From positions 256,001-320,000 of the IMG/VR virus record IMGVR_UViG_3300045988_180880: 64,000 nt of DNA. The stretch is one strand, 5' to 3'. The position numbers and the translations under genes were made by a program. Under the pieces are notes generated by a model. That model was given only the letters and a program-made list of their open reading frames with translations, did not search any database and was not told the DNA's origin. Positions 6,997-58,816 of the stretch are shown here, piece after piece; positions within the stretch are counted from its first letter, which is position 1; every line of letters begins with the position of its first letter. Source of the stretch: a virus.

Positions 6997-8008
6997 TTAT
7001 TCATCTAATCTTTCTTGCTTAGACTTCTTAGATATCTCTTCCTCATCCAAATCTCCATAAACTTCCGGAAGCCATCTTTTTAAAATACTGGGAATCAAAT
7101 CATTTCTCACAACATCCTCTAGACCAAATTCAACAATACCTATTTCATCCATATCAGATAATTTTTCCACAGCATATTGTAATCCTTTTTGATTTTTCCC
7201 TGATTTTAAAGAACTCGAATCTAATTGCATTTCATCAGAATTAAAGATATATTTAGAATTAGTTCCTATTCTAGTTAATATCTTAAGAAAAGTATCTCGA
7301 CTGAAGTTCTGGCTCTCAGATATTAAAACAATTGAAGAATCAATATTGTTTCCCCTAAGAAACTGGCTGCCTTTCACTTCTATTTTACCAGCATCTACTA
7401 ACTTTTGAACAATTTCTTTTCCATTTTTTCCTGAAGCATTAAATATCTTCTCCATCGTATAAAAATCTGCTTCTTTATACGGCGCGAGCTTTTCTTGCAA
7501 ATCTCCGCGAAGATCGAATAGGCCTATATTAATTATATAGACTACTAGACTATATCTTAAAAGCGTTTTTATTTTCTTTTCTTCACACATAGTCGTTGAG
7601 AAACTATTTAGGTTAATCTAATTAATAGTTTTTGCTGATTATACTTTAATTTCCAGCATTTCTTGAAGTTTTCCTAAGTTTTATACACCTAGGGGACAAT
7701 CTAACTTATCCAATATTTTCGTCAGGATTAGTAGCTACAGGATAAATAAATACTATTTTTTCATAACCATTATCAGGATTTTTTAATAAATCAAGGGCAG
7801 CGTAAACAGAAACGTATGATTTTCCAGAACCGGCAGGACCCTTAACTATTGTAATTTCGTGATCATAAATAGATTTAAGAAATTCTTTTTGATGCTTAGT
7901 TTTGCATTTAAAATTAATTTTAAAATTCAAAATACTATCTCTTTCTTTTCGAATTAGATCAAGTTCTTCATCTACACTTGATTTAGTAACAGCTTTCTTT
8001 TTAGCCAT
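6997..8008 (-). CDS. phoH: PhoH-like ATPase, 2 exons
   Basis: join(8008..7708,7514..6997) on the minus strand. Exon 1 carries Walker A GPAGSGKS. Exon 2 carries IVLISESQN (Walker B), TRIG and DVVRN. The splice restores ENIG-YLRGDLQEKLAPY, matching the E. coli PhoH block ERLGFLPGDLSQKVDPY with identical spacing. Confidence 0.85.
7515..7707 (-). ncRNA. ORF-less mini group I intron (class A, 193 nt) in phoH
   Basis: P1 pairs exon GGAU with guide GUCC (U.G at the 5' splice site). P2 CCUAGG/CUUAGG, P3 CUUCA/UGAAG. Core blocks: P AAAUGCUGGAAA, Q AAUCAGCA, R UCAACGACUA, S AAGAUAUAGUC. The intron ends in G. Confidence 0.85.
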
Positions 8009-8017
8009 AGAGTTTAA

Positions 8018-22766: not shown

Positions 22767-22841
22767 ATTAATTATATTTTAATTTTTTTATTATCTAATT
22801 ATTATAAATTCTTTTAATACAGAATCCAGTTACATAAAAGT

Positions 22842-23464
22842 GAAGACATAGGAGTCTCCCTTTTTCATTAATTAGAGTTTGAAGTTATTAGAAGAGCAAA
22901 ATGTAGATTTAAATTCAGATCAATTTGGGAAATAGTAATATAATATAATATATAATAAAAAAGTATACATTTAGTATTTAGATTAGATTCGCCTCCTTGG
23001 AGAGGCGAAAATCAATAATATAAAATCTTTATAAATATCTTCATTTTCTGAGTTTATTTTCTATATATCTTATTCAATGTTTCTTTTCTAAGACACCCCT
23101 AGCGGTAGCGATAAGGGGTGTAATATAAGGGAAGCTCCTGTGTCTTCATAAATAAGTTACCGAATTTTTATCAATTTTGAAGATAAAAAATAAAAGTGGG
23201 TTATTTTGGCTCATTTTAGGGTAAAAAGTAGTAAAAAACATCAAAAATAACCCACCTTTTGAGGGTTAAATTTAATATAAGCCTTATACATGAAATATAA
23301 GGAGAATCTGTGTCCTTCCCTCCTTTCCAAACGTGGTAATTTTGTTTTTCATATCCATATATTACTAATAGCGATTAGTTTTCTACTAAGTAAGTTCTTT
23401 TTCATAGTTGTTAATAATTTGTTTATTTCTCACATATAAATGGACACAGATTCTTCCTTTTATA
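22842..23464. promoter_or_regulatory. divergent control region with four copies of a ~22-bp motif, two per strand
   Basis: Plus-strand copies: ATATAAGGGAAGCTCCTGTGTCTTC (23123-23147) and ATATAAGGAGAATCTGTGTCC (23295-23315). Minus-strand copies lie at 22842-22860 and 23442-23464. Hairpins lie at about 22989-23008, 23092-23121 and 23197-23257. Confidence 0.5.
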
Positions 23465-23514
23465 CTAAGAAATCGATATTATATTTTTTAAGATAATAAT
23501 TGTTTTCAGGGATT

Positions 23515-23592
23515 AGGTTCGGCGCTAAAGTTGCTGCGGAGATGGGTTAAGTAGGTTACTTAATTTTGTATCCCGGGACTTAGCTCCGACCT
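23515..23592 (+). other. GC-rich structured leader upstream of 23629 gene
   Basis: Closing stem AGGTtCGGcGC / GCtCCGACCT encloses the GGG..AAGTA/TACTT..CCC hairpin. It is a GC island in AT-rich context. Confidence 0.35.
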
Positions 23593-23628
23593 CTTCTTTT
23601 TAGTTCTTTGTAAAAATACTATGTTCAT

Positions 23629-24847: not shown

Positions 24848-24919
24848 TTCCCCTTAGTTCAGCGGATAGAACCTGGGATTTCTAATCCCATAACGTGTGT
24901 TCGATTCACACAGGGGAAA
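24848..24919 (+). tRNA. trnR: tRNA-Arg (anticodon TCT)
   Basis: Acceptor TTCCCCT/AGGGGAA, D stem GTTC/GAAC, anticodon arm TGGGA-ttTCTaa-TCCCA, T arm GTGTG-ttcgatt-CACAC. Confidence 0.9.
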
Positions 24920-24970
24920 CAAATAAATATAAATTACAACTAAATTTAACTAATAAAAACTAAATTAATC

Positions 24971-25135
24971 ATGACAACAATTTTTAAGAAAGTAATCTTT
25001 AACCCTCTTAAGAGAGCGGTTAAGTGGTATTTTACTCAGTCTGCTAAAACAGGAAATTATATCTGTATGACTGGAACTTTTCCTCAAGAGTACTATGAAA
25101 TGATGTATGAAAAGAGGAAAGATCAACAAAAGTAA
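24971..25135 (+). CDS. small hypothetical ORF (54 aa)
   Basis: ATG ORF MTTIFKKVIF... between two tRNAs, below the ORF-track size cut-off. Confidence 0.3.
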   Translation: MTTIFKKVIFNPLKRAVKWYFTQSAKTGNYICMTGTFPQEYYEMMYEKRKDQQK

Positions 25136-25219
25136 AAGACAGTAGAAATTTATGGGATATAGGAAATTCCTATATACCCTTCGTTGACTAGGAAGAAAAT
25201 AATTAATAAAAAAATATAT

Positions 25220-25291
25220 CGCAGGATGAAAGAAATGGTATCTGACAAGTTTCATAAGCTTGGGTTGTTCGTTCGAATCGAGCTCCTGCTA
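25220..25291 (+). tRNA. tRNA with CAT anticodon (Met, fMet or Ile2), atypical
   Basis: Anticodon arm CAAGT-ttCATaa-GCTTG, T arm GTTCG-ttcgaat-CGAGC, G18 G19 present. The D stem is weak and pair 1:72 is a C/T mismatch. Confidence 0.6.
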
Positions 25292-25301
25292 CATACATAC
25301 T

Positions 25302-25415
25302 AACGATGTGATATCGTAAGTTCTTTATTGTATTTATAAAAATATAGAAGAGAGATTTAGTAAGACTCTCTTCTATTAATAAAAAAAAAAGAACTTTAAT
25401 TGATATTACGGGAAG
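25302..25415 (+). promoter_or_regulatory. conserved structured leader, copy A (tRNA to HNH gene)
   Basis: AACGATG-GTGATATC ... hairpin TAGAAGAGAG/CTCTCTTCTA ... GATATTAC-GGGAAG. It ends 16 nt before the ATG. Confidence 0.6.
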
Positions 25416-25431
25416 TAGTAAATTTAATTAT

Positions 25432-26160
25432 ATGAATAAGTACAATAAAGATGAATTAGAGAGATTAATTTTTAAAGAAAATTTATCTTATAAAGAAATT
25501 GGCAAAAAATATGGAGTATCTGGAAATACTATTAGAAAGAATGCAAAAAAGTTAGGAATAGTGTTACCTAAGAGAAGAAATATAAATCCTAATGAAACTT
25601 TTAATAAAGGAAAACAGATTCATATAGCTAACAAAAAACAAAATTCTAATAATAGTAAATTAGATCTCATATCTGATAATGATTTTATTGAAATTATCAA
25701 GACAAAGGATAATTGGAAAGATATATTAGTTTCACTTGGATATAATAAACATGGATCTAAATTTATTAGGGATAAAATAAGAAAAAGATGTTCGAATTTG
25801 GGAATAAATTTAAATCTTAAACAAAATCAACTAGATACTGTACCAATTTTATCTGTAACTAAAGGAGATTTATTTAAAAAACGTTCTAATTGGCAGAACG
25901 CTAGATCTAATATTCAAAATTCAGCAAGAAAAATATTTTTTAAGAATTGTCTTGATCCTAAATGTATAGTTTGTGGATATACTAATCATGTGGAAGTAGC
26001 ACATATAAAGGCAGTTAGTAATTTTAGTGAGGATTCATTAATATCAGAAATTAACGATATTTCTAATTTAATAGGTTTATGTCCTAATCATCATTGGGAG
26101 TATGATAATGGATTATTAGATATAAGTAAATACATAAATCATGAAAATAATAAGAAATAA
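25432..26160 (+). CDS. HNH homing endonuclease with N-terminal HTH module
   Basis: C-terminal CIVCGY...HVEVAHIKA...LCPNHHWEYDNG. The N-terminal LSYKEIGKKYGVSGNTIRKNAKKLG is shared with the 27388 and 36489 genes. Confidence 0.8.
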   Translation: MNKYNKDELERLIFKENLSYKEIGKKYGVSGNTIRKNAKKLGIVLPKRRNINPNETFNKGKQIHIANKKQNSNNSKLDLISDNDFIEIIKTKDNWKDILVSLGYNKHGSKFIRDKIRKRCSNLGINLNLKQNQLDTVPILSVTKGDLFKKRSNWQNARSNIQNSARKIFFKNCLDPKCIVCGYTNHVEVAHIKAVSNFSEDSLISEINDISNLIGLCPNHHWEYDNGLLDISKYINHENNKK

Positions 26161-26497
26161 TATTATTCCTTTTCCAGGCTATAAAGCAGTAAATATCTTT
26201 GGAATTTTATTTGTAAGGAAGAATGCTAATATAAAACCAGAAGACTTAAATCATGAAGAAATACATACAGCACAAATGAAAGAAATGGCTTATATCGGAT
26301 TTTATGTATGGTATTTCTTGGAGTGGTTATTATGTCTCCTAGTTTCAGGATTTAGCTTTGGTTATGCTTATCATGATATTAGTCTTGAGGAAGAAGCACA
26401 CTTAAATGATAAAGACCTGGAATACTTAAAAACCAGAAAACATTATTCTTGGTGGTCCTATATAAAACTAGGAAGTTGGAAGAAAAATAAAAATTAA
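26141..26497 (+). CDS. membrane protein with HExxH motif
   Basis: NHEEIHTAQ is followed by a hydrophobic segment. It overlaps the HNH gene's 3' end by 20 nt. Confidence 0.4.
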   Translation: MKIIRNNIIPFPGYKAVNIFGILFVRKNANIKPEDLNHEEIHTAQMKEMAYIGFYVWYFLEWLLCLLVSGFSFGYAYHDISLEEEAHLNDKDLEYLKTRKHYSWWSYIKLGSWKKNKN

Positions 26498-26518
26498 CCA
26501 TATATACATAAAAAGATT

Positions 26519-26833
26519 ATGATTATACTTAGAAATAAGACCTATTCGCATGAAGAAGAAATTGCGAATATTGCGGCAGCTCCTGGAAGTCCAGAGTATA
26601 GCCATGAAAGAGCCGAAATAGAAAAGAAACCGGCTCAAGAAGCATCAGCAGTTCAAGAAGGTTATGAAAAAGCATCTCAGGAAATTGATAAAACAGTAGA
26701 AGAAGTAGAAATAGTTCCTGAAGCAGCTGAAGAAGCAATCGAAACAGAAGCACGTGAAGCTGGAGATTCTAACCTAGACTCTAGAAATGATGCATTAAAA
26801 ACTCTTAATGATTTCTTAGGTAATATTCATTAA
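26519..26833 (+). CDS. acidic N-box protein
   Basis: Starts MIILRNKTYSHEEE; Glu/Ala-rich. Confidence 0.5.
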   Translation: MIILRNKTYSHEEEIANIAAAPGSPEYSHERAEIEKKPAQEASAVQEGYEKASQEIDKTVEEVEIVPEAAEEAIETEAREAGDSNLDSRNDALKTLNDFLGNIH

Positions 26834-26835
26834 TT

Positions 26836-27054
26836 ATGATTATCCTCAGGCAAAAGAATTATTCCGGCCGAGAAAAAGTACCTCAGGCTATAGCAGAGAA
26901 GGCACGAAAATCTGGAGTAGTTCAAAAAGATTCAAATGGTGCCTGGAGAATTATTAGCCTGAAAACTTCTCCGGCCGAATATTGGGATGCACATTATGAT
27001 ACCCGTGAAGATGCTGAAAAAGCTCTAGCCGCTTATCATGCAAATAAACATTAA
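26836..27054 (+). CDS. small N-box protein
   Basis: Starts MIILRQKNYSGREK. Confidence 0.5.
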   Translation: MIILRQKNYSGREKVPQAIAEKARKSGVVQKDSNGAWRIISLKTSPAEYWDAHYDTREDAEKALAAYHANKH

Positions 27055-27168
27055 GAGATTAATTTTAGAAGCGATGAAAATCGGATATTTTGAAAATTTT
27101 TACACTAGTACTTTTATCTCAGAATAAAGGAAATTGAGTAGTTATAGTGTTAGGTTTTTAACGCTTTT

Positions 27169-27251
27169 ACGGGAATGTTGGAATCGGTAGACAAGTAACT
27201 CTTAGAAAGTTATGCTAATTTAGCATGAGGGTTCGAGACCCTCTTCCCGTA
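27169..27251 (+). tRNA. trnL: tRNA-Leu (anticodon TAG), type II
   Basis: Acceptor ACGGGAA/TTCCCGT, anticodon arm TAACT-ctTAGaa-AGTTA, long variable arm TGCTAatttAGCA, T arm GAGGG-ttcgaga-CCCTC. Confidence 0.85.
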
Positions 27252-27260
27252 CGATAAGTT

Positions 27261-27368
27261 AACGATGTGAATCGATTCCTTATTAATTCATTTATATAAA
27301 ATATAGAGAGCTCGACGGGGCTCTCTTTAAGTAGAATTAATAAGATGTTGTTTATGATTCATGGGATG
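27261..27368 (+). promoter_or_regulatory. conserved structured leader, copy B
   Basis: AACGATG-TGAATC ... hairpin AGAGAGC/GCTCTCT ... GATTCA-TGGGATG. The helix sequence differs from copies A, C and D but pairing is kept. Confidence 0.55.
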
Positions 27369-27387
27369 TAACTTAGATTTTATATAA

Positions 27388-28251
27388 ATGAATGAAAGTA
27401 AATTAAGTAATGTAACAAAAGAAGAATTAGAAAAACTAATCTTTGGAGAAAAATTATCCTATGAAGAAATAGGTAGGAGATATGAAGTTTCTGGAAGTGC
27501 TATTAAAAAGAAGGCTAAAAAATTAGGTATAGAACTTCCTAAGAAAAGAGATATAAATTCTAATGAAACTTTTAATAAAGGATACTCTTTTAAGTATAAT
27601 AAGAAAGATTTAGAGAAGTATTTAGGTGAAGGAAAGAGTTATAAAGAGATTGGAAATATTTATGGAGTATCTTCATCATCTATATATAGGGCAGTTAAAA
27701 GTTTTGGATTATCACCTAAGAAAAAATCTCCTAAGAAAAAAGAGTCAAAAAATTTGAATAAACCTAAAATTATAATAAATTCTGTAGATGATAGTGTTTT
27801 TTCAGATTATGTAAAGGATAGTTTATCAATAGCAGAAGTCGCTAGATCAATTGGAATAGATAATAATAAAATTAATACTAGCGTTTATAGAGAAATTCAT
27901 AAAAGAATCGATTCTTTAAAGTTAGATACATCTCATTTTACAGGAGGTGCATGGAATGTAGGAGATAGATTTAGAAAAATAGATAAAGGATTTCCATTAA
28001 GTGAAGTTTTAGTAAAAAACTCATCATATAAATGTACTAATTCTTTAAGGAAAAAGCTATTTAATGAAGGTGTAAAAGAACGAAAGTGTGAATGTTGCGG
28101 TATAACTGAATGGAATGGAAAGCCTGCACCATTACAACTTCATCATATAGATGGAGATAATACTAATAATTCTTTAGAAAATCTTCAAATACTTTGTCCT
28201 AATTGTCATGCTCAAACAGATAATTATTGTAGTAAAAATAAAAACGTCTAA
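27388..28251 (+). CDS. HNH homing endonuclease with duplicated HTH modules
   Basis: CECCG...LQLHHIDGDNTNN...LCPNCHAQTDNY, plus two LSYEEIG / KSYKEIG HTH-like repeats. Confidence 0.8.
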   Translation: MNESKLSNVTKEELEKLIFGEKLSYEEIGRRYEVSGSAIKKKAKKLGIELPKKRDINSNETFNKGYSFKYNKKDLEKYLGEGKSYKEIGNIYGVSSSSIYRAVKSFGLSPKKKSPKKKESKNLNKPKIIINSVDDSVFSDYVKDSLSIAEVARSIGIDNNKINTSVYREIHKRIDSLKLDTSHFTGGAWNVGDRFRKIDKGFPLSEVLVKNSSYKCTNSLRKKLFNEGVKERKCECCGITEWNGKPAPLQLHHIDGDNTNNSLENLQILCPNCHAQTDNYCSKNKNV

Positions 28252-28335
28252 TATCTATACTAACCTCTTTTCCTCTTAATAATTCTCTCTAAACAAGGGG
28301 GAGGGGTAAAATAATTAACACTTTAAACAATTATT

Positions 28336-29148: not shown

Positions 29149-29158
29149 AAAAGATAAT

Positions 29159-29191
29159 CTATAGAGGTAGTGTAATCAATCTCCTCTATAG
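29159..29191 (+). terminator. hairpin CTATAGAGG/CCTCTATAG
   Basis: 33-nt element identical to the one at 34962-34994, after the paralogous gene. Confidence 0.6.
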
Positions 29192-29215
29192 AACTTAATA
29201 TAAATATTATAAAAT

Positions 29216-29659: not shown

Positions 29660-29690
29660 AAAGATTTGCTTTAGATGATTTAATAATATT

Positions 29691-30358: not shown

Positions 30359-30363
30359 TAAAT

Positions 30364-30879: not shown

Positions 30880-31451
30880 ATGTCTAAAAATGATAAATTA
30901 TTACCTGTACCATTAAAGTACACCTATCCGGTTGTAATGGAAATTTCTCCAAGTAACAAACCATTGAAAAATTAGACATCTATTGTAATAGGTGTGGAAA
31001 GTTTTTTAAACAAACAGCCTATGATCATGTTTATGGATCTGGATGTCCTGATTGTAATAAATTAGGAGGAAAAAGCGCATTAAATGTATTAAAGTGGTTA
31101 GAAACAAATCAAATTGATTATACAAGGGAATATTCTATAAAATTAAATAATAGGAACATTAGAATAGATTATGTTTTTAATTATAATAATTGTTGTTTGT
31201 GGATAGAGTATAATGGACTACAACATTATAAGAAAGTAGATTATTTTCATAAAACAGATGAAGGTTTTCTTAAACAATTAAATAGAGATAATGAAGTTAG
31301 AAAATATTGTAAAGAGAATAATATCATCCTTATAGAAATTCCGTATACATATAACACTTATGAAAAAGTAGAACAATTATTAAATCGAGTAATTTTAAAT
31401 GGAGAGGATATAAACTCTATTATAGATTATTCAAAATTATATAAAATATGA
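30880..31451 (+). pseudogene. deleted/frameshifted zinc-ribbon + Vsr/DUF559-like homing endonuclease
   Basis: The 31-codon N-terminus MSKNDKLLPVPLKYTYPVVM matches the start of the 41879 gene, then stops at TAG 30973. The -1 frame continues from 30972 (LDIYCNRCG...GCPDCN...WIEYNGLQHY...RDNEVRKYCKENNIILIEI) to 31451. The central ~250 aa of the full-length paralog are missing. Confidence 0.6.
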
Positions 31452-35096: not shown

Positions 35097-35992
35097 ATGA
35101 TAGGAACAGTTAACCCATTTAGTGACCCTGAATTTAAGAAACAAATTTTAGGGAAAGAAGGGAGAGCTGTTGATGACCCGGGAGATTATGAGATTTTGCA
35201 GCCGGAAGAGGATGTATCTAAAAACCTAAAAAATATTATAGGGTCAGCTCCAGTACTCCCTAAAACGGCTCGCAATATTATTATGGATGCTAGTGCTATT
35301 GCGAGTAATCAAAAAGAACAAAAAGCACTAGAATTAACTCATAAATTGAATGAAGTCTTTACTAGTTATAATAAAGAATATAATATAGATCTTCATGTTG
35401 ATTTCGGAAGCCTCTCAAATACTTTAGTTAATGTGGCAGATCCGAAGTCTAGACATATCTTAGAATTATATGTTTCTGAGGTATTTCAAAGTATAAGACC
35501 TATTTTAATTCTCAATATGATTTCTAAACTTTGTCTTTGTATTGATTATATACTCGATCCAATGAGACTCTTTGATAGTTCACAAATGACTTTACAAGAT
35601 TCATTTATTGCCGTTAATATATCTGCGGCTTAGTTGAAATACTAAGAAAATTATACTAAAATGCTGAAAGATAGTTAAAACATAAATCAGCAAAAAGGAT
35701 TACTAATATAAATCCTTTCTCAACGACTAAATGTATAACTAAATTTGAAATATAATTTAGATGATATAGTCTAATTTAATAAAATAAATATTAAAAATAG
35801 ATATGAGAAAAAATTATGCAATTTATTCAACAATTAGAAGATATGAAGAGTCAGATAATTGTTAAAGGTTCTGATCTTGAATTGAAAAAAATTGCAGAAG
35901 AATCTGGAAATGAAGAGTTGAATAGTGAAGAGTCTAAGCAAATAGTAGCAGACTTTATGAGATTATTTCAAAAAGAACATGGAATAGAATAA
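35097..35992 (+). CDS. hypothetical morphogenesis-module protein, 2 exons
   Basis: join(35097..35614,35806..35992). The junction reads ...DSFIAV-EKIMQFIQQLEDMK.... Function unknown. Confidence 0.65.
35615..35805 (+). ncRNA. mini group I intron class A (191 nt)
   Basis: P1 CCGU/GCGG, P2 CUUAG/CUAAG, P3 UAUAC/GUAUA, P6 AGGAUU/AAUCCU. Core blocks P AAAUGCUGAAA, Q AAUCAGCA, R UCAACGACUA, S UGAUAUAGUC. It ends GAUAUG. Confidence 0.8.
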
Positions 35993-36148: not shown

Positions 36149-36192
36149 TTTATGATATTTTCTGATTTATATTTCATAATTAAATCAGAATT

Positions 36193-36266: not shown

Positions 36267-36278
36267 CAAAAATAATAT

Positions 36279-36350: not shown

Positions 36351-36358
36351 CTGTTTTA

Positions 36359-36443
36359 GGAGAGGTGGCAGAGTGGTCGATTGCGGCGGTCTTGAAAACC
36401 GTTGTACTGCGAGGTACCCGGGGTTCGAATCCCTGTCTCTCCG
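36359..36443 (+). tRNA. trnS: tRNA-Ser (anticodon TGA), type II
   Basis: Acceptor GGAGAGG/TCTCTCC, anticodon arm GCGGT-ctTGAaa-ACCGT, long variable arm, T arm CGGGG-ttcgaat-CCCTG. Confidence 0.85.
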
Positions 36444-36488
36444 CAATAATTTTAAAGATAAGAAAAATTATAAAAAAAACAATTAATT

Positions 36489-37273: not shown

Positions 37274-37286
37274 TTAATAATAAGTT

Positions 37287-37368
37287 TGTGTGATACTCAA
37301 GTGGTTAACGAGGATAGACTGTAAATCTATTAGCTTTGCTTTCGGGAGTTCGAATCTCTCTCACACAA
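37287..37368 (+). tRNA. trnY: tRNA-Tyr (anticodon GTA), type II
   Basis: Acceptor TGTGTGA/TCACACA, anticodon arm ATAGA-ctGTAaa-TCTAT, long variable arm, T arm GGGAG-ttcgaat-CTCTC. Confidence 0.85.
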
Positions 37369-37388
37369 CATAAAATAAAATTATAAAT

Positions 37389-38372: not shown

Positions 38373-38392
38373 AAAGAGAAAGGATCAAAATT

Positions 38393-40490
38393 ATGATTAA
38401 TTTCACAGACCATTTTGATCCCACTAAAAATATAGAAAAAGATTTAGCAAAAGTAGATCTTAGGGATCAATACACATCATTAACAGAAGATGAAAAGATA
38501 ATGGTATTTCTTCGTCTCAAAGGATTTACACACAGACCTCCAACGATAGAAAGATTATATTCTGATGATTATTATTTAGGTAGTCAGGAATTTTTTGATC
38601 ATGGAGATGTAATATTTCCTTTTTGGAAAGATGGATTGAAGAGAATTTTTCCAAATGAAGTTACAACAGCAAAACCATTACTCTGTTTGTCAGGAGCTAT
38701 TGGTATAGGTAAGTCTACGGTATCTAAATTAGCTATGACAAATACACTAGCTAGGTTAAGTTGTATGGCTAATCCGTGGAGAACATTTAAATTAGGTAAA
38801 AAACCACTTAGTTTTATCATCTTTCATAGAGATGAAGATGTAGCAAATGCTGAATTTCGAAGATGGATGCTAGATGATGTATTAAAGCAGAGTCCATTTT
38901 TTAGAAATTTACCACACAGACATAATATAAGAATATTAACTTCTGGTCCTAGGGGTAATGTAGTATAAAAAGTTGCCCTCCATATTAAGAAATTATATGG
39001 TAATAAAGTAAGTAAATTCGGTGAAAGGATAATCCCAATACCGAGTCAAGGATCTTAGATAAATCTAAGTAATCTTTGATGTAACGAATAAAGACTTACT
39101 AACTTATATAATTATATAAGTTAAATTTATATTCTAAACTATAATAGAGTATTATAGAAATAGATTGGCAGGTGGACTAGGAACTGACTTGATTTTTGCA
39201 ATCATGTCTGAGGTCAATTTTTGGCCTAACGAAGAAAAAGCCATGGAACGTGTAAATAGTACGTATATTCGTATTACATCTCGTTTTGATGTAAAAGAAA
39301 GTTTAACATTAGCCGGAAATCTAATAATTGATAGTTCTAGTAGAGGTGCAGGTGGTCCAACTGAAATATTTCTTGAGAATGCAGAACCTCAATTTACTTG
39401 GGATTGTAGACCTTCTCATTATGAAGTTAGAAAAAATCTGTACGAACGTTCAAGGGGAATAACTTTCTCAGTTTATACTGGAGATGGTAAATATCCTCCA
39501 AGAATATTAAATAAAAATGATAAAGAAGAGAACTATAAATTAGAAGATGATCAAGACCCTGATAGAGTGGAACATGTACCTATTCAATTATTTGGAGAAT
39601 TTAAATCTGATTTGATTAAAGCTCTTCAAGATAAATCTGGTATTAATACAGGATCATCAGATAGTTTTTTTGGAGGTACTATAGAACACTTATCTAAATG
39701 TTCAACAATAAAGAATAGAATTCCTGAAATTATTACAGTTGATTTTTATGATAAAGAAGATAGGATTATTAATCATGTAGAAAAAATGATTAATCTTATT
39801 CCAAAAGGTACTCCTATATGGCTAGGTCTTGACTTAGGTGTAGTAGATGATACAACTGGAATAGCAGCAGTTAGTTTTGATCATTGGGAAAATATAAATG
39901 GTACTTTAGTTCCTAAGGTTAAATGTCATTTTGTTTTAGGTGTATCTAGGTTAGAAGGACAAGAGACGAGTTTATTTCACATAGAGCAGTTTATAGAAGA
40001 TCTTAACAAGAAATTTAATATTATAGTTAGTGCTGACCAAGCTTTTTCTAAACAAATACTTCAATATTGTGAAAGAGAAGGAATTAGAAATAATGGGAGA
40101 ATTTCTACAGATAATACTCCTTGTGAACCGGCTCTTTATTTGAAGTATATAATAAACAATGAACTTCTTGAAATTCCTGAATATAAAAGATTACAAAGAG
40201 AGGCATATGATTTAAGATATGTTGGTCCAAAACGTAAAGTAGATCATCCTAAAAAAGCATCAATATCTCCATTATTTGATAATCCTGATGGTTCTAAGCC
40301 AGGAAGCAAGGATTTATGGGATGCTTTAGCTTCTAGTGTTTATTCTTTAAAATTATCTATTGATGAAGGAGAAGAGATGGGATATTCTTCAGGAATAGCT
40401 AAACAACTCGAATCTCTTACTAAAATAACAGCGGATCCAAGAGAAGAGTCACAAAAAGAACTTCAAAACATGTTGGAAAATATATTTTAA
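38393..40490 (+). CDS. terL: terminase large subunit, 2 exons
   Basis: join(38393..38956,39168..40490). Walker A SGAIGIGKST is in exon 1. Walker B LIFAIMSE and the RNase H-like nuclease motif WLGLDLGVVDDTTGIAAVS are in exon 2. The junction reads ILTSGPRG-AGGLGTDLIFAIMSE. Confidence 0.8.
38957..39167 (+). ncRNA. class B mini intron (211 nt, group I-like architecture) in terL
   Basis: P1 GGGGU/GCCCU (U.G at the splice site), P2 CCAUAU/AUAUGG, P3 GUAAGU/ACUUAC, proposed P7 GAAUAAA/UUUAUaUUC, P8 AACUUAUAU/AUAUAAGUU, P9 CUAUAAU/AUUAUAG. It ends GAUUG. Confidence 0.65.
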
Positions 40491-40595
40491 GATTCTTTTT
40501 CCATAATATATAATCAATTCCTAGGATGGCCAGAGGAAAGTGGTCTATTGTTCGATCAAGTCCTAGGAACAGAAAAAAAAGAAAAGAGATATATT

Positions 40596-40805
40596 TCAAT
40601 CTCTTTCTTCCATACGTTTTACAAATTCCCATTCTTCTGGAGTAACATAATCCAGAACGCTTTTTGGAATTTCTACTTCTCTATCGTTTAACATTAATTT
40701 AACTTTAACAAATAATTTATTAGGAGTAATATCTACATCAGTTACTACTCCATAAAATCCTGTTTTACGAGATTTAACTTTATCTCCTACTTTTAAATTT
40801 TTCAT
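40596..40805 (-). CDS. small hypothetical protein, lone minus-strand gene in the plus-strand module
   Basis: 69-aa ORF; GDKVKSRKTGFYGVV resembles a KOW/SH3-like beta motif. Confidence 0.45.
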   Translation of the reverse strand: MKNLKVGDKVKSRKTGFYGVVTDVDITPNKLFVKVKLMLNDREVEIPKSVLDYVTPEEWEFVKRMEERD

Positions 40806-40826
40806 AATTTTCTATATTTATTATTA

Positions 40827-40846
40827 CACATATAAGGTTTTTAGAG
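40827..40846 (+). promoter_or_regulatory. promoter-like box CACATATAAGGTTTTTAGAG
   Basis: Ends 3 nt before the ATG at 40850. Confidence 0.4.
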
Positions 40847-40849
40847 CTT

Positions 40850-41218
40850 ATGATAATACTACGAAAACAAAAATATAAAGAACTTCCCTGGACCAAAGAA
40901 AATATAGAAAAATATAAGTCACAGGAGAATATGTTAAAGCACGCAAGAAATACACCAGGAAAAACGGCTGGAAAATTATTAATAAACCCAGCCAAAGATG
41001 AGTTGGTGGGATATATAGCGTGCGAAGAAGATACTATTATTGCTCTAGAAGTTTCTCCGGGGTATAGAGGAAAAGGAATAGCAACTGATTTGATAAATTC
41101 TTCTGGGGCTAATAAACTTACAGTATCAAAGAAAAATATAAATGCGATAAATTTATATAAGAAACTTGGATTTGAAATTATATCAGAAACTCCAAAAATA
41201 TATTTTATGGAGAAATGA
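40850..41218 (+). CDS. N-box GNAT acetyltransferase
   Basis: Starts MIILRKQKYKEL. Contains YRGKGIATDLIN and NLYKKLGFE. Confidence 0.65.
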   Translation: MIILRKQKYKELPWTKENIEKYKSQENMLKHARNTPGKTAGKLLINPAKDELVGYIACEEDTIIALEVSPGYRGKGIATDLINSSGANKLTVSKKNINAINLYKKLGFEIISETPKIYFMEK

Positions 41219-41219
41219 T

Positions 41220-41291
41220 TGAACTATAGTATAATTGGCAATACACCAGATTTTGGTTCTGGGATTTCCTGTTCGAGTCAGGATAGTTCAA
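41220..41291 (+). tRNA. trnQ: tRNA-Gln (anticodon TTG)
   Basis: Acceptor TGAACTA/TAGTTCA, D arm GTAT-aattggca-ATAC, anticodon arm CCAGA-ttTTGgt-TCTGG, T arm TCCTG-ttcgagt-CAGGA. Confidence 0.85.
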
Positions 41292-41322
41292 CGAAAGAAA
41301 ATAATAATAACTAATAAAAACT

Positions 41323-41640
41323 ATGTTGAGAGTTAAAAGATTTAGTAAAGTTACTGATAAAGTTAAAGAAATAGGAAAATCTATTGAACATACAGTAACT
41401 CATCCTAAAGAAACTGGTAAGAAGGTGGTGGAGTATGTAAAGAAACACCCAGATGAAGCTATAATTCTTGGGACATCTGATATTGTTCCTGGAGTTGTTG
41501 CTGCCAAACTTGCAAAAGCTGGAAAAACAAAACAAGCAGCTATCGCAGGAACTATTGCAGCACTTCCTATTGGTGGTGCATATGTATCAGGGAAAATAGC
41601 TATTCGAAAATGGAATGAAAAAAGAAAGAAGAATAAATAG
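41323..41640 (+). CDS. small N-box protein with Gly/Ala hydrophobic segment
   Basis: Starts MLRVKRFSKVTD. Contains AAIAGTIAALPIGGAYVSG. Confidence 0.55.
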   Translation: MLRVKRFSKVTDKVKEIGKSIEHTVTHPKETGKKVVEYVKKHPDEAIILGTSDIVPGVVAAKLAKAGKTKQAAIAGTIAALPIGGAYVSGKIAIRKWNEKRKKNK

Positions 41641-41648
41641 AATAGATT

Positions 41649-41721
41649 CGAGATGTAGTTCAGTAGATAGAACGCTTGGTTTGGGACCAAGAAGTCGCAC
41701 GTTTGAGCCGTGTCATCTCGA
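41649..41721 (+). tRNA. trnP: tRNA-Pro (anticodon TGG)
   Basis: Acceptor CGAGATG/CATCTCG, D stem GTTC/GAAC, anticodon arm CTTGG-ttTGGga-CCAAG, T arm GCACG-tttgagc-CGTGT. Confidence 0.85.
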
Positions 41722-41734
41722 CCTAGATAAATAG

Positions 41735-41878: not shown

Positions 41879-43327
41879 ATGATAGATACTAAATTATTAC
41901 CAGTACCTTTAGAGTATTCTTGTCCAATAGTAATGAGAGTAAAACTTCCCAGAAGAAATGATAGTGGGAGATTAAACTATTATACGTATGTTCCAGAATT
42001 AGGTACTTGGGTATTAGAAAAGATGAGAAATTCAGTTTTTAAGAAATTACAAAAATTAAATATAACTTTTAGGGACTGGGAAAATAGATGGTTACTTAAA
42101 TTACAACCATCTGATATGTATTCAGAACTTTGGGTAGATAAAATAATAGAAGTTTATTATAAAGATAAATTACCAAATACAAAAAGTTATATAAAAGATC
42201 AATTATTGTTAGATAATGATTATGTATTTACGGGTGTTATGGTTAAAGAGGATTTAATGGATATATTTATTAAATCTCGGGAGGGTAGTTTTATAGACAT
42301 AGTATATAATTATGATTTAGTACCTAAAATAATCGAAAAACTTACAGATGAAATATGTTTACAGTATTTAAATGATAATAATGAATATGAAAAATACTAT
42401 ACTACGTATTCAGATTTTATTTCAAGAGGGCTAAATTGTAGGTATTATGCTGCTAAACTTAGAAAAATAACGCTTAGTAATAAAGAATATCATTCGAGTA
42501 GATTAAAGACAACAGAAGCTTATATTACAGAATCAAAAGCTAAGTTTGGAGAAAATTCCTTTGAATATTTATCTGAATATACTGGAAGAATTGATAAAAT
42601 GACTTTTAAATGTAATAAGTGCGGAACAACTTTTTCGGTTTTAGCAAAAACACATTTAGAAAGTTCTCATGGTGGGTGTCCAGTTTGTAATACTAATTCT
42701 ATAAAAGAAGATAGAAAGTTTTCTAATCAAGACTTTCAAAATAGGTTGGATAATATTTATGGAATTGGAAAGTATAAGTTAATATCTAACTTTATCAATT
42801 GCAAGACTACTGTGGAAATTTTAGATCTTGAAACAAATACTATATTTAAACAAGATCCAGAGAATTTATTATATCATGGACTTACAGATCCTAGTACTGT
42901 TACTAAATCAAAGGGAGAACGATTAGTAGAGCTTTGGATTAATAAAAATTCAGATAAAATATTGGATTATAAGTGGAATACTAAAGTAAGTGGAATAGAG
43001 GGCAGGTGTAGAGATTATGTTATGATTGATTTTATTATTAACTATGGTGGGAAAACCATATGGATTGAATATAATGGAATTCAGCATTATACATATTTTT
43101 CACTATATCACAAATATGATAAAAATCTTTTTGATGACCAAAAAAGAAGAGATGAAAATGTAAGAATTTATTGCAAACAGAATAATATAATGTTGGTAGA
43201 AATTCCTTACACTATAAGTTCTTTTAAAAGAGTTTCTGAATTTTTAAATAAAGTAGTTTTTGAAAATATTGATCCAAGTACTTTAGTAGATTATAATCTT
43301 TTATATGAAACTACAAAAGGAAAATAA
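41879..43327 (+). CDS. freestanding homing endonuclease: zinc ribbon + Vsr/DUF559-like PD-(D/E)xK domain
   Basis: FKCNKCGTTF...GGCPVCN, then VMIDFIINYGGKTIWIEYNGIQHY...RRDENVRIYCKQNNIMLVEIPY (D...E.NG.QH...R.D...K pattern). Confidence 0.65.
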   Translation: MIDTKLLPVPLEYSCPIVMRVKLPRRNDSGRLNYYTYVPELGTWVLEKMRNSVFKKLQKLNITFRDWENRWLLKLQPSDMYSELWVDKIIEVYYKDKLPNTKSYIKDQLLLDNDYVFTGVMVKEDLMDIFIKSREGSFIDIVYNYDLVPKIIEKLTDEICLQYLNDNNEYEKYYTTYSDFISRGLNCRYYAAKLRKITLSNKEYHSSRLKTTEAYITESKAKFGENSFEYLSEYTGRIDKMTFKCNKCGTTFSVLAKTHLESSHGGCPVCNTNSIKEDRKFSNQDFQNRLDNIYGIGKYKLISNFINCKTTVEILDLETNTIFKQDPENLLYHGLTDPSTVTKSKGERLVELWINKNSDKILDYKWNTKVSGIEGRCRDYVMIDFIINYGGKTIWIEYNGIQHYTYFSLYHKYDKNLFDDQKRRDENVRIYCKQNNIMLVEIPYTISSFKRVSEFLNKVVFENIDPSTLVDYNLLYETTKGK

Positions 43328-43347: not shown

Positions 43348-45137
43348 ATGAAATTTATTGCAAAATTGTTTTCGACAATGCTACCTGCATCTGACAGTAG
43401 TATGATACCTCGAGATGTTGCGGAATCTTTCTTTAGTAGCCAAGAGTTTAAACAAGCCTTAGAGGATAGAAAGCTCTTTGGAACATTAACACACTTAGCC
43501 AGAAATCTATCATCTGCCAAAAATGGTGGTCCTGCAGTATCTAAGACTATAGGGAAAGATGATCTCCTTTATTGCTAATAATGAGAGGCATAGATAAAAA
43601 GTTTATGAAAATGTTTTTAATTGCTGGAAAAAATAATAAATTAAATCAGCAAAAATAGATAATAAAATCTATTTCTCAACGACTAGAGTAAACACTAAGA
43701 ATACCGATTAATTCTTAGATAATATAGTCTATTATTGATTTTAAAATCAATTAGGTTAAGTTATTAATTGGCGAAAGTTCACCTACACATGTGTTAACTA
43801 AAGTTTGGTTCGAAAATGACGGCTGGTGCTATGGGGAGTTTGAGGTTCTCTCCGAAGATGGCCTAGACGATGAAGCTATACAAAGAATCAGAAGAGTAAA
43901 GGGCCTTCTTAAAAATGGTTGCAAAATTGGAATTTCCTGTGTCGTTCTTTAATTAACTGAGACTTAAGAAATTCATAAGTTCTTAAGAAAATTTCATAAA
44001 ATGCTGGAAAGGTTAGAATCAAATCAGCATCATCTAGCAGATAGCGAGATGTTCAACGACTAAAGATGGAACCTAGATTTTTAGGATAATATAGTCTAAA
44101 TTTAATAGCAAGCAATATATTAAAAAAAATTGGGATATTGGGAAAATTCTAGCGGAAGTGACTATTTAAAGCGTATGGTTGCGCTAAAAGGGGCTGACCT
44201 TACATTAAACCCTTCTTGGAAAAATGCGGGTATAGTTTCAATTGATGGTTCTGAGAGCGAAAAAACATTCTCTGAACTTGATATAGAGTATGATCCTGAA
44301 GCTTATAAGGATACAAAAATAAAAGTTAAGCAATTTTCTAACTTCGATTCGGGAGATTTATTAAAGTCTTCTAAGATTAATGGAAAGTTTACGCAATTAA
44401 AAGCTAAATCATTTTCATTTAATTCTGAAATAAATTCAATAGAAGATACTATCGTTAGTGAATCTGTAATAGAAGAACCTATTCAAAAAGATTTCTCAGT
44501 TGCTACAGTTAAAGAGAGAGTTAGAATTGGAAAGATGTCCCCTCGCCAAAGATTTCGTCTACTTGTTTTAGAATATAAGCAAGCAGTAAAACAAGCTGGT
44601 GGTTCTGAAAAGATGGATCCAGAAACACTTAAAATCATGAAGTCTTTGTTTACTACAGATCTTTTGGATATTATGAAGTCGATTACACCAGAAATCATGA
44701 ATGGAAAAAATCCAGGAACATTACTTGGTGCTTCTAGTTTAGGTAAGAATGTACGTAAATAATATGCGTTTTTTATATGAATTGCTGGAAATATCTAAAT
44801 GAGATAAATCAGCATCAAATCATACTTAGATAAATCTAAAGAAGTGATTTGTTCAACGACTATGTATATAAACTGTCAAAATAGACAGAAGATATAGTCT
44901 AAATTATAAATAAATTTTATAAATACATTGATAAGTGTACAAAAATTGTTCTTACCATATAAGATGGCTATGTCTGAGGTATCTAAAACTAATGCAATAT
45001 CTAAGGCAAGATATCAAAAAATTCAAGCTGCTTATTCTGACTTTGTTAATGCAATGTTAGAGGAAATATTCGCGCCAAAGAATGGTACGAAGAAAGAAGA
45101 GCCAGTAGAAGAAGAAAACCCTGAAGAAAACAGTTAA
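43348..45137 (+). CDS. prohead protease (HK97/S78-like) with C-terminal scaffold-like extension, 4 exons
   Basis: join(43348..43573,43771..43949,44133..44756,44931..45137). LFGTLTHLARN lies in exon 1. GLLKNGCKIGISCVVL-GYWENS spans the exon 2/3 junction and resembles the Ser-containing ..G.S.G. block. The family call is by eye only. Confidence 0.55.
43574..43770 (+). ncRNA. mini group I intron class A (about 197 nt), protease intron 1
   Basis: P3 UGUUU/AAACA. Core blocks P UAAUUGCUGGAAA, Q AAUCAGCA, R UCAACGACUAGA, S UAAUAUAGUC. P9 is AUUGAUUUU/AAAAUCAAU and it ends UAAUUG. The 5' boundary is ambiguous: P1 is either UUUAUU/GAUAAA (used here) or CUUU/GAGG ending at 43570. Confidence 0.7.
43950..44132 (+). 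ncRNA. mini group I intron class A (183 nt), protease intron 2
   Basis: P1 UCUU/GAGA, P2 CUUAAGAA/UUCUUAAG, P3 UUUCAU/AUGGAA. Core blocks P AAAUGCUGGAAA, Q AAUCAGCA, R UUCAACGACUA, S UAAUAUAGUC. It ends AAAUUG. Confidence 0.85.
44757..44930 (+). ncRNA. mini group I intron class A, P2-less (174 nt), protease intron 3
   Basis: P1 ACGU/GCGU, P3 UAUAU/AUAUA. Core blocks P GAAUUGCUGGAAA, Q AAUCAGCA, R UUCAACGACUA, S AAGAUAUAGUC. It ends ACAUUG. Confidence 0.85.
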
Positions 45138-55872: not shown

Positions 55873-55901
55873 ATAAAACAATTAATTATTATATTTAAAT
55901 T

Positions 55902-58816
55902 ATGGCACAATGGACTGAAACTCTCGAACCGTATGTAAAAGTTATAGAGAGAGTACATACCGCAGCTCTTAATCCTACTGCAGGTGAAAGTTTAATTATC
56001 GGAGTGACTTTAATTTCTGATGCAGGCCCAGCAGTTCCTACACTGATCTCTAGTCAATCTGAATTCTTAAAAACTTATGCTTCAGGGGACTTAACAGAAG
56101 ATTATATGGCATCCTTGAATAATCTTTATCATGATGCTAATAATACAGGAGATAAAAATGTAGCTGCAACAATGTGGATGAATGCTTATAGATTGGCTGG
56201 CTCTAATGTTATGCTGGTTTGTAGAGCATCTAAAGCTAACGATATCTACTACGCTAAACCCATGACTAAAACTGATTATAGTACATATATCCTTAGAGAT
56301 GGTGCTTTAATGAAGGGATTTAGAGATGCTGATAAAGGTGTCGTTAAGTTTGTTCTTGATATTGATGGTGATGATGCAGAACATGATCAAGATGGATGGT
56401 CAATTAATTTGAATGGAGTAGGTATTCTTGGTAATCGTACCACCGATGATGGTCCTCAATATGATTACTATGTAAGAACTCTCCCCGACTTAGTAAATCA
56501 AATGAATGAAACTAATAAATTCTTCTCTCCATCTTATAAATTCTTCACAGATCCTAATAATATCATCTCTGAAAATGAAACAACTGATCCCGATAAAGCA
56601 AAGGCAGTTGTATTCTATGAACTTTATCTAGGACAGGATATGCTAGATACTTCAGACTCTAGATGTCCACTAGGAAAGCAGTATATCGTGATTTGTGAAC
56701 CTGATTGGACTAGTGATAATCCTAATCAAAAACTTATAGATATTAATGCTTCCGCTTGGTCTGGTTTCGAAGAACAGAAATATTATGCAGTTAATCAATA
56801 TAACTCTAATACTGATCTGAGAGTTAGAATTAGACGTTTTAATCATGATGCAGTAGTTACCAAAGAATTAACTAACCCCGCTTTGAACGAAAACTCTGAT
56901 TCTCCTTATATGGTACTATCGGCCGTTCTAGATACCTATACTAAGAAAGGAACAGTAGAACCGTCAGAAAGTATCCTACAGCGAGATTTTTATGAAGTCG
57001 CTGTTCTTGATCCTAATATTTCTGACGAAGTACAGTTCTTTAATATAGGTAAAGTAACCGGCCGTGGAGATATGGAAGTATCAGAACTCAATGAACTCCT
57101 AAGTATGATTCAACTTCAACTCCCTGACGATATGAGAGAGCTTGGATTGAACTACTATGGATACGGAGCTGATGATAAAGTATGGGTAGAACTTGATCCT
57201 AATGACCCAAATGCAGGTTCTTATAAGCAAACAGTTTCTTCAATGACTGATCTTTACAACTCAATAGGTATGTCAGTTGGAGATGTTTACCGAGTTGGAT
57301 CTGGAAGTTCATATAAGTACTATGAATATCAAGAAAATGGTGGAGATCAAGTTTATGCAAAATTAGGCGTAGATCCAACTGAAACAGATATTCTTGACGT
57401 ATCTGAATCGGATCTTAAGAAAGCACTTGACGAAATCAATATTCAGGAAATTTATGTGGTTGAAGGATTATGTGACCTTGGAAATACATCACTAAGTTTC
57501 CAGAATTACTTGGCTAATATGGCTATCAACTCTAACTATTTCTATCCAATATCAACAGTTCAGAGCACAAATTATATGACTATCGCTAATAATGCAACTA
57601 AGATAGCACAAGATTCATATAAACTCTATCTATCTGCACCTTGGGATATCGACTCTGGTACATTTGGATGGAAATATTATTGCTCACCTGCTGTTGTTTA
57701 CTGGGAAGCTGTAGCTAGAAACCGTAGAAATAATGCAGAATTTGCTCCTGTACTTGGACAAACTAATGGTATTGTTCAGTATCAGAGACCTATGACAGAG
57801 TTTAATAAAAAAACTCGTCAACTTCTATTATCTAAACGAGTAAATACTGTACTCTGGAATTATCAAACTAATGCTTGGAACATGAATGATAAACAAAATT
57901 GTCCAATTTATTGAAATTGAATTTTTATGAACTGCTGGGATTTATATAAAAAAAATAAAAATCAGCAAAAAGGATTACTAATATAAATCCTTTCTCAACG
58001 ACTAAGTATAAAAGATAAATAAATTTTATTATTTTTCAAGATATAGTCTAGCGAAATTACCAAATAATTTTCTAAAACGAATTATACTAAGCAAAGTGTG
58101 GATAATATTGTTTCAGATGAAGGTAACTCTCGTTTAGCTATTCGTATCTCAAAAGCTATGCCTGTACTACTTAAACAGTATATAGGCTGGAGAATTGCAC
58201 CAAAACTATGGGAAAGTGCGATTGGAACTATCGATTACTGGTTTAAATCAACTATTCTCCCAATGTCTTATAATATCGATGATTACCGTATTATCATCGA
58301 TGAGACAAATAACCCTGTTCAAATTCAGCGTAAATAATTGCGCCTTGGATTTTTATATTACCAAGAAAAATAAGAGAATTGCTGGAAGATAATAAAATAA
58401 ATCAGCAAAGAAAGTTTACAAAAATTTTCTCTCAACGACTATGTACTTATTAAAATGATATAGTCTGATCTTAAATATTAATCTTATATTTAAGTTTAAC
58501 AATAATGCAGAATAAAATGGTGGTTAACGTTTTGGTTAGATACCAGAGAGCTTTGAAATATGTCATCGTAAAGTATATGCGATTATTATACCAATTGCTG
58601 GAACTTAATAAATCCAAAGAATCAGCAAAAATAGATATAATTCTATTTCTCAACGACTAGATGTATAATTAAAATTTCATGAAGATTTTAAAAGATATAG
58701 TCTGAACATGAGTAGATAATACTTAGCAAACATATTGATATCACGACATTTTCGACGTTGGTATGCAACTTGCAGTCTCAGAGTACGAAGATACTAGAGG
58801 AGCAGCCCTTGAATAA
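55902..58816 (+). CDS. tail-sheath-like protein, 4 exons
   Basis: join(55902..57909,58099..58331,58508..58569,58738..58816). The N-terminus GESLIIGVTLISDAGPAVPTLISSQSEFLKTYASG resembles sheath proteins. So do the C-terminal blocks PAVVYWEAVARNRRNNAEFAPVLGQTNG, KRVNTVLWNYQTNAWNMND and NKMVVNVLVRYQRALKYVIV. The family call is by eye; the exon 2 start may be 58102. Confidence 0.6.
57910..58098 (+). ncRNA. mini group I intron class A, P2-less (about 189 nt), sheath intron 1
   Basis: P1 AAUUU/GAAUU, P3 UUUUAU/AUAAAA, P6 AGGAUU/AAUCCU. Core blocks P GAACUGCUGGGA, Q AAUCAGCA, R UCAACGACUA, S AAGAUAUAGUC. The 3' boundary is G 58098 or G 58101. Confidence 0.7.
58332..58507 (+). ncRNA. mini group I intron class A (176 nt), sheath intron 2
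   Basis: P1 GCGU/GCGC, P2 CUUGG/CCAAG, P3 UAAG/CUUA, P9 CUUAAAUAU/AUAUUUAAG. Core blocks P GAAUUGCUGGAAG, Q AAUCAGCA, R UCAACGACUA, S UGAUAUAGUC. It ends AAUAAUG. Confidence 0.8.
58570..58737 (+). ncRNA. mini group I intron class A, P2-less (168 nt), sheath intron 3
   Basis: P1 AUCGU/GCGAU, P3 UAUAC/GUAUA. Core blocks P CAAUUGCUGGAAC, Q AAUCAGCA, R UCAACGACUAGA, S AAGAUAUAGUC. It ends AUAUUG. An alternative 3' site after G 58725 would give a different C-terminal peptide. Confidence 0.75.

Follow-up and report, generated by a model that had tools for sequence, protein, structure and literature searches.

Predicted small group I introns without open reading frames in six genes of a human gut jumbo phage

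The stretch of 64,000 nucleotides (nt) analysed here (the window; IMG/VR record IMGVR_UViG_3300045988_180880, positions 256,001 to 320,000) contains twelve elements of 168–211 nt that are, as judged from comparative sequence data, very probably splicing-type group I introns devoid of open reading frames (ORFs) and inserted in genes of a Jug (jumbo gut) phage. They fall into two sub-families and lie in six genes, namely the genes for PhoH and the tail sheath and the genes here called B, C, D, and F, the last coding for a putative large terminase (TerL). Precise removal of the element restores a continuous conserved reading frame in all twelve cases. A previous sequence-only reading of the window had proposed a family of ten introns in five genes; this inventory was incomplete, as it lacked two members (I11 and I12). 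The presence in Jug phages of small group I introns is an already published phenomenon (PMC12880540), and because the introns of the window are introns of these phages, the novelty implied by that reading is not retained and the present work is a refinement, not a discovery.

Results

Intron inventory and boundaries

Related loci from IMG/VR (numbered with an L) include near-identical strains without individual introns, and these alleles, together with collinear proteins, give the boundaries of the introns. Positions are those of the window, on the plus strand unless stated otherwise, and each P1 helix is written as upstream exon/guide, the splice site following the last exon base.

In the PhoH-like gene, I1 occupies 7515–7707 on the minus strand (193 nt, sub-family A; P1 GGAU/GUCC). 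Locus L152 lacks exactly 193 nt at this point, and the Pfam PhoH family aligned as a single stretch through the junction. No PhoH allele free of all introns was found in IMG/VR; L152 carries a different intron at another site. Gene B is interrupted three times: at codon 24 by I2 (31518–31694, 177 nt, sub-family A, without P8; P1 CCUU/GAGG), at codon 304 by I3 (32537–32720, 184 nt, sub-family A; P1 CCGAU/GUCGG), and at codon 411 by I11 (33040–33228, 189 nt, sub-family B; P1 GGU/GCC). The intron-less allele of L005 encodes RIPLRSNVFSKG at the first site, the same as the spliced peptide, and L005 also lacks the 189 nt of I11; at the site of I3, the spliced product is collinear at the protein level with the intron-less homologue of L022. 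The homologue in L022 of gene C is also uninterrupted, and it is collinear at the protein level through the junction of I4 (35615–35805, 191 nt, sub-family A; P1 GCCGU/GCGGC). Gene F, which has a Walker-A motif, is split into two fragments by I12 (38957–39167, 211 nt, sub-family B; P1 GGGGU/GCCCU), and here the intron-less L148 reads LTSGPRGAGGLGTD, which is the product of splicing at these positions.

Gene D carries I5 at codon 74 (43570–43760, 191 nt; P1 CCUU/GAGG), I6 at codon 135 (43950–44132, 183 nt; P1 UCUU/GAGA), and I7 at codon 342 (44757–44930, 174 nt, without P2; P1 ACGU/GCGU). The intron-less L023 reads GKDDLLLLIGESSPTHVL, which is reproduced only by the splice pair 43570/43760; splicing there gives GKDDLLLLIGESS, as in that allele, and the earlier placement of I5 at 43574–43770 is wrong. 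Locus L028 lacks exactly 43950–44132, with no mismatch in 300 flanking nt, and L025 lacks I7 to the base. The sheath gene carries I8 at codon 663 (57891–58079, 189 nt; P1 GAUAA/UUGUC, with the splice site after GAU, and P2 CAAUUU/AAAUUG), I9 at codon 747/748 (58332–58507, 176 nt, without P8; P1 GCGU/GCGC), and I10 at codon 768 (58570–58737, 168 nt, without P2; P1 AUCGU/GCGAU). L055 lacks exactly I8, to the base, and exactly I9, whereas I10 is absent from L060. The product of splicing I8 at 57891–58079, NMNDNYTKQSVDNIV, agrees with the homologues P0001 and P0002; the positions 57910–58098 previously given to I8 would yield KQNCPIL at this junction, where the homologues read NYTKQSV. More than 400 homologues of the spliced sheath protein exist, many of them uninterrupted proteins of 791 amino acids on contigs of up to 396 kb, and they are collinear through the second and third junctions.

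Eight of the ten boundary pairs first proposed are thus right, and those of I5 and I8 are not. The accompanying claim that joining the exons gives continuous frames held for four genes; gene B ended early, which is explained by the unrecognised I11. That none of the introns codes for a protein was borne out in all twelve, where the longest stop-free stretch has 39 codons, as was the frequency of early in-frame stops, which come within 4 codons in 8 of the 12 introns and within 12 codons in 11. Further hidden introns were sought in the remaining non-coding gaps of the window, and none had the support of gene fragmentation or of the covariance model described below (R1).

Splice sites, guides, and missing helices

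With the validated boundaries, the last exon base is a U opposite a G (a U.G wobble) and the last intron base is a G (omega-G) in 12 of 12 introns, exactly as proposed for the original ten. The guide begins with the G of the wobble, makes 3–5 base pairs with the exon, and lies just 5′ of P2 or P3 in every intron. Eleven of the twelve guides pair over at least 4 base pairs, against 27% for random exon 10-mers. Eight of the ten P1 pairings first proposed are retained, and those of I5 and I8 are replaced by the ones given above, their boundaries having been wrong; what had been taken for the P1 of I8 is its P2.

The sequence-only reading counted three copies without P2, which reduce to two (I7 and I10). 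In I2 and I9, and in relatives at several other sites, only 7 nt separate P3′ from J8/7, and there is no P8. A search of the literature for natural group I introns without P8 found none, and one for the smallest known group I intron gave nothing useful.

Core motifs and covariation

The sharing of the P, Q, R, and S core blocks by ten copies is well founded. Shuffled sequences predict 0.05 occurrences of the motif TGCTG-N(10–40)-ATCAGCA in the window, which has exactly 10; TCAACGACTA likewise has exactly 10 copies, and in both cases these lie at the ten loci of I1 to I10. In MAFFT alignments of these ten, the blocks AAnTGCTG, ATCAGCA, TCAACGACTA, and ATATAGTCT form invariant columns. When the copies were cut at such anchors and the segments folded, P2, P6, P8, and P9 hairpins appeared independently, with a different sequence in each copy. 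Minimum-free-energy folds of three cores give P3[P4–P5, P6]–P8 or a version in which P7 replaces P3; their z is about −2.

The covariance model R1 was built from the ten first-listed introns only and run with filters off; the divergent sub-family, which MAFFT misaligned, was deliberately excluded. Building such a model had been suggested as a check. The seeds score 101–137 bits (I1 127.7, I2 114.6, I3 137.2, I4 119.9, and I10 115.9), followed by I11 (38.3 bits, E = 2e-4) and I12 (35.1 bits, matched at 38966–39167), and everything else in the window scores at most 16.4 bits.

Covariation was measured in an alignment of 66 relatives, 44 of them distinct, harvested by the model from representative loci; this alignment is fitted to the model, which favours structure. 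Among the distinct relatives, 88.9% of the pair cells are standard pairs, against 36–46% when the partners are slid by 1–3 columns, and the covariation score is 0.43 against 0.11 in shuffles, none of 500 shuffles reaching the observed value. Pairing of the long-range P3 is complete (100%), with double changes at 5 of 5 pairs and three or four pair types per position. Pairing reaches 96% in P6, 90% in P2, and 84% in P8, which is present and covarying in most copies. Within the group I core, covariation is seen in P2, P3, P5, P6, P8, and P9, and that of P3, P6, and P2 is visible already in the raw MAFFT alignment. P4 and P7 are invariant among the ten, and here compensatory changes appear between the two sub-families. 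In I11 and I12, P7 reads GAAUA/UAUUC where the ten have GACUA/UAGUC, P4 reads UUUGGU/ACCAAG (I11) or UUCGGU/ACCGAG where they have UUGCUGG/UCAGCAA, and P3 is GUAAGU/ACUUAC. Pairwise identity among the twelve introns is only 34–64%, so the family is old and diversified.

A nearly identical hairpin, (C)UUAGAU(A/U)AAUCUAA(G), extends P6 in I11 (33126–33139), I12 (39054–39069), and I7 (44826–44839), that is, in both sub-families. It is confined to introns within the window and is also found in introns of L006, L055, L063, and L065. It may be a modular insertion, or serve as a tertiary or protein contact.

Relation to accepted group I introns

A search with the Rfam family RF00028 (Intron_gpI), also proposed with the original prediction, is weakly positive when taken alone. 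In a 1.5-kb search, I7, I6, and I5 score 28, 24, and 17 bits, with P4, J6/7–P7, and J8/7–P7′ in register, and all of these scores are under the gathering score. At least 120 genomes of bacteria and archaea contain the pattern formed by the R and S blocks, and several bacterial elements with the same core pass RF00028 at 60–80 bits. R1 recognises some of these in turn, such as L221 at 49 bits. The link between the phage introns and recognised group I introns hence runs both ways.

R1 also finds three close-set elements of 182–206 nt in a contig of an Oscillospiraceae metagenome-assembled genome (L205, 6660–7630) and an element of 170 nt in a Saccharibacteria genome (L186, 1315–1484), so that group I introns of comparable size are not confined to Jug phages. 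Inside the gene annotated as RNA polymerase beta subunit of two Staphylococcus jumbo phages, Madawaska (GenBank MW349129, 251649–251782) and MarsHill (MW248466), a stretch of about 130 nt is 68–70% identical to I3 and probably represents a small, related group I intron.

Intron polymorphism among strains

Near-identical strains differ in the occupancy of at least 25 sites, and their introns include relatives of about 163 nt. The 3′ end of the sheath gene (57.7–58.8 kb of the window; L055–L092) is an intron hot spot. Its last 185 codons contain at least nine insertion sites (amino acids 609, 663, 715, 733, 748, 758, about 763, 768, and 774), of which 1–6 are occupied in a given strain. The strains compared here share at least 92% identity in the sheath protein, nearly all of them 99–100%; sheath homologues at 79% identity or less have no introns. 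In some strains, about 355 nt are found at sheath amino acids 763–769, which are probably two adjacent introns. Among the other genes, gene B has at least six sites, gene D three, and PhoH two, and gene F carries 0–3 introns. The second PhoH site lies in the Walker-A coding region, where strains lacking I1 have a sub-family-B intron between VKGPAG and SGKSY (L152, 981–1177); PhoH thus varies between strains in both the identity and the position of its intron.

Related introns also occur at different sites. I2, at codon 24 of gene B, is 79–82% identical to introns at codon 333 (L019, L006), and such relocated relatives retain the guide and follow the same exon tetramer. The pair CCUU/GAGG is found at B-24, B-333, D-74, D-135 (L038), and the third terL site, CGAU/GUCG at B-304, B-362, and sheath-715, and CCGU/GCGG at C-173 and sheath-609. 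CCTT makes up 0.21% of the positions in host genes, yet 5 of the roughly 21 sites catalogued come directly after it (P of about 7e-10; the cataloguing was done by eye, and terL site 1 was re-read as CCAU). Exon positions −4 to −2 are 68% G+C against a background of 33%. By these counts, the introns appear to sit preferentially after uncommon, G+C-rich exon tetramers matching the guide. This pattern fits equally well with reverse splicing and with insertion at the DNA level followed by selection for a working P1. As a check for co-conversion, the distribution of exon differences was inspected: at I2, I11, and I10 they are concentrated at no more than 25 nt from the junction, and no clustering is seen at I6, I8, and I9, where presence and absence are perfectly clean, so that it is not a general feature.

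Identity of the phage

Jug phages were described by Chen et al. (bioRxiv, August 2025, PMC12363816; Science Advances, February 2026, PMC12880540) as having genomes of 360–402 kb with about 30% G+C and Bacteroides/Phocaeicola hosts. The same study finds group I introns in 136 of 139 Jug genomes, 2,513 in all or 18.5 per genome, with a mean of about 206 nt, and reports a terL broken into 2–3 fragments, stand-alone HNH and other endonuclease genes by the hundreds, and metatranscriptome reads that back splicing at 37 of 76 predicted introns (PMC12880540).

The window has about 30% G+C, and contigs with proteins identical to its own measure 377–383 kb and come from the human gut. The contig ending in _180488, which carries genes of the window, among them gene B at 100% identity, is listed in the huge-phage table of the Jug paper (377.8 kb, GC 0.297, human gut). 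The published Jug protospacer was searched for in the window itself and not found; it is located on IMGVR_UViG_3300045988_180568 (the contig of L163), whose PhoH locus shares 98.9% nucleotide identity with that of the window, I1 included. Because of the table entry, the contig with the protospacer, and its PhoH locus, the window is assigned, on sequence identity, to a Jug phage genome of about 380 kb from the human gut. GenBank phage searches with the window DNA, the sheath protein, and a neighbouring protein of 785 amino acids gave no matches.

Host genes, endonucleases, and other features

The PhoH-like gene, recognised by Pfam, has its exons at 8008..7708 and 7514..6997 on the minus strand. 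Gene C spans 35097..35992 and gene F 38393..40490, both on the plus strand. Sequence searches of Pfam, PHROGs, and PDB gave no name to genes B, C, D, and F, and the label of protease previously attached to gene D finds no support there. The sheath was named from a weak PHROG match (E = 2e-5).

Directly upstream of gene D is a free-standing homing-endonuclease-like gene of 482 amino acids (41879..43327, plus strand), which has PHROG matches to HNH endonuclease, homing endonuclease, and intron-encoded nuclease (E = 5.5e-28) and a Pfam zinc ribbon. It is a candidate trans-acting mobility factor. Another endonuclease-like ORF (30957..31451, plus strand; PHROG HNH/homing endonuclease, E = 3.9e-29) is directly upstream of gene B and overlaps its start by 4 nt. 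This ORF has no start codon for most of its length and corresponds to no more than the C-terminal part of the family; it is probably a decaying remnant copy.

Ten tRNA genes (Arg, Met, Leu, Glu, Thr, Asn, Ser, Tyr, Gln, and Pro) are interspersed with structural and packaging genes at 24848–41723 on the plus strand. No suppressor tRNA was seen in the window, which fits standard code 11. Where the genes change from the minus to the plus strand, there is a non-coding region of 835 nt (22779–23613); it coincides with a reversal of GC skew and may act as an origin or as a divergent promoter. Downstream of PhoH, a stretch of 570 nt (6425–6996) has no ORF of 50 amino acids or more on either strand. 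Within it, a search of 600 nt gave a weak match on the minus strand (6547–6603) to RF02682 (HDV-F-prausnitzii, an HDV-like ribozyme), with 23.6 bits against a gathering score of 44 and E = 0.037; the match keeps the CCUCU..CG.GG core.

Discussion

Splicing introns and the alternatives

The identification of these elements as group I introns agrees with covariation, with the U.G wobble, guide, and terminal G, with the intron-less strains, with the register of the RF00028 alignments, with the link to bacterial introns, and with the published reads (PMC12880540). A number of observations nevertheless weigh against this identification or against parts of it. RF00028 stays below its gathering score (50 bits) throughout the 64-kb window, in which the introns are not listed even at E ≤ 10, and it misses I2 and I3 at the same threshold in a 3-kb search; this shortfall is a limit of the detection model, not a structural criterion. 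The introns are very A+U-rich (20–28% G+C), P5 amounts to just 3–5 weak pairs, P8 is missing from I2 and I9, and P2 is missing from I7 and I10. The weak P5 and the missing helices make autonomous self-splicing without the help of proteins uncertain. The identification of gene F as TerL comes from its Walker-A motif and the description in the Jug paper, with no profile hit. An ORF for a homing endonuclease is absent from all twelve introns, the endonuclease-like genes being free-standing. Finally, the read support in the published Jug work covers only about half of the predicted introns (PMC12880540).

Several of these points would suit elements that are group I by ancestry and not autonomous, their splicing in vivo needing a phage or host RNA chaperone or a maturase-like protein. 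The low G+C content, the weak P5, and the loss of P8 or P2 are what one could expect of such elements, as are the modest z of the folds and reads for only 37 of the 76 predicted Jug introns (PMC12880540). We consider this dependence possible and somewhat doubtful, as J3/4, P4, J6/7, P7, J8/7, the terminal G, and the U.G wobble are all strictly conserved or covarying and no candidate maturase was identified. Small group I introns, such as those of Azoarcus and Twort, self-splice in vitro, which also counts against a need for proteins.

The wording of the Jug paper, which cites Einvik et al. 1998, points to GIR1-type "group I-like" ribozymes, lariat-capping or hydrolytic, instead of splicing introns (PMC12880540), and these have a similar size of about 180–210 nt. 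This identity is extremely improbable here, since the elements are inserted in frame inside essential genes, where both removal and exon ligation are required, and since they have the P1 U.G wobble, a guide complementary to each 5′ exon, a terminal G, and canonical R/S and P3/P7. Rfam families other than RF00028 gave no match even at E ≤ 10. Known GIR1 ribozymes, in addition, sit within larger twin-ribozyme rDNA introns of protists. It is nearly as hard to see the elements as unspliced selfish insertions or repeats, with gene fragments that are translated separately or are pseudogenes. ORF callers do give separate fragments, but the downstream ones mostly have no start codon, and the hosts are essential virion and packaging genes in abundant, complete genomes of 380 kb. 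Removal of each element restores the exact sequence of the uninterrupted homologue, covariation shows selection on the RNA fold, and published RNA reads span such junctions (PMC12880540), all of which makes this explanation very unlikely.

Mechanism and mobility

If the elements are splicing-type group I introns, each RNA would fold into the canonical core, with the P1 U.G wobble, P3–P4–P5–P6, the P3/P7 pseudoknot, usually P2 and P8, and P9. An external guanosine bound in P7 would attack after the terminal U of the exon, the freed 3′-OH would attack after the terminal G of the intron, and the exons would be ligated, restoring the reading frame. By analogy, splicing would then proceed by the standard mechanism of two transesterifications. 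The early in-frame stops probably keep ribosomes off the folding ribozyme.

As near-identical strains differ in their occupied sites, comparison of their sequences suggests that the introns are, or recently were, mobile. No intron contains an endonuclease, and movement could take place through free-standing homing endonucleases acting in trans, recombination between co-infecting phages, or guide-directed reverse splicing. Tentatively, and with rather more doubt than confidence, one may suppose that the phage introns include the smallest natural splicing-competent group I ribozymes (about 163–177 nt), some lineages having lost P8 (I2, I9) or P2 (I7, I10), and that they spread without endonucleases by guide-directed reverse splicing into rare G+C-rich NNNU tetramers.

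Implications and comparison with known systems

Standard annotation pipelines working at the Rfam gathering score overlook these introns and report sheath, terminase, PhoH, and other proteins as fragments, for which the corrected junctions yield full-length proteins. With thousands of very small, A+U-rich group I cores, Jug phages offer a comparative dataset for the minimal splicing ribozyme, and their strain polymorphism, with 1–6 introns in the same 185 codons, is a natural system to study the spread of endonuclease-less introns. The P8-less and P2-less cores, sizes at or below that of the Azoarcus intron, the polymorphism of the hot spot, and the bias in target tetramers may be details beyond the Jug paper.

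The closest comparison is with the published Jug introns, which belong to the same phage group, are also numerous and ORF-less, and also fragment essential genes including terL. The available text of that paper gives counts and examples, has no secondary-structure analysis, and suggests GIR1-like ribozymes (PMC12880540). Relative to that text, the present analysis adds that the elements are, in all likelihood, complete splicing-type introns, and it adds the two sub-families, the cores without P2 or P8, the polymorphism of sites, and the tetramer bias. The introns of crAss-like phages were detected via endonuclease domains and hence carry ORFs (Yutin et al. 2021, PMC7886860), whereas the introns described here have none.

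Bacterial introns with a TCAACGACTA...ATATAGTC core, found for example in the 23S rRNA of Patescibacteria and in Neobacillus, have R and S blocks identical to those of the phage introns and are recognised by the phage-derived model at 40–62 bits. They differ in being mostly 220–310 nt long, with a higher G+C content (0.30–0.47), and in their rRNA or other contexts. Among other phages, the orf142 gene of Twort contains several ORF-less introns of at least about 250 nt, and the td, nrdB, and sunY introns of T4 measure about 600–1,000 nt and have endonuclease ORFs; both sets carry extra helices (P7.1/P7.2 and P9 extensions). A location in phage protein genes and the classical R/S core sequences are common to all of these. 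The introns of the window are far denser, with up to six in the last 185 codons of the sheath gene, and have smaller cores. The intron against which the smallest self-splicing introns are commonly measured, the ORF-less minimal natural ribozyme of the Azoarcus pre-tRNA-Ile (about 205 nt), is G+C-rich and highly stable, lies within a tRNA anticodon loop, and has both P2 and P8. The introns described here, by contrast, are found in mRNAs, have 20–28% G+C and 168–211 nt, and in some cases are without P2 or P8.

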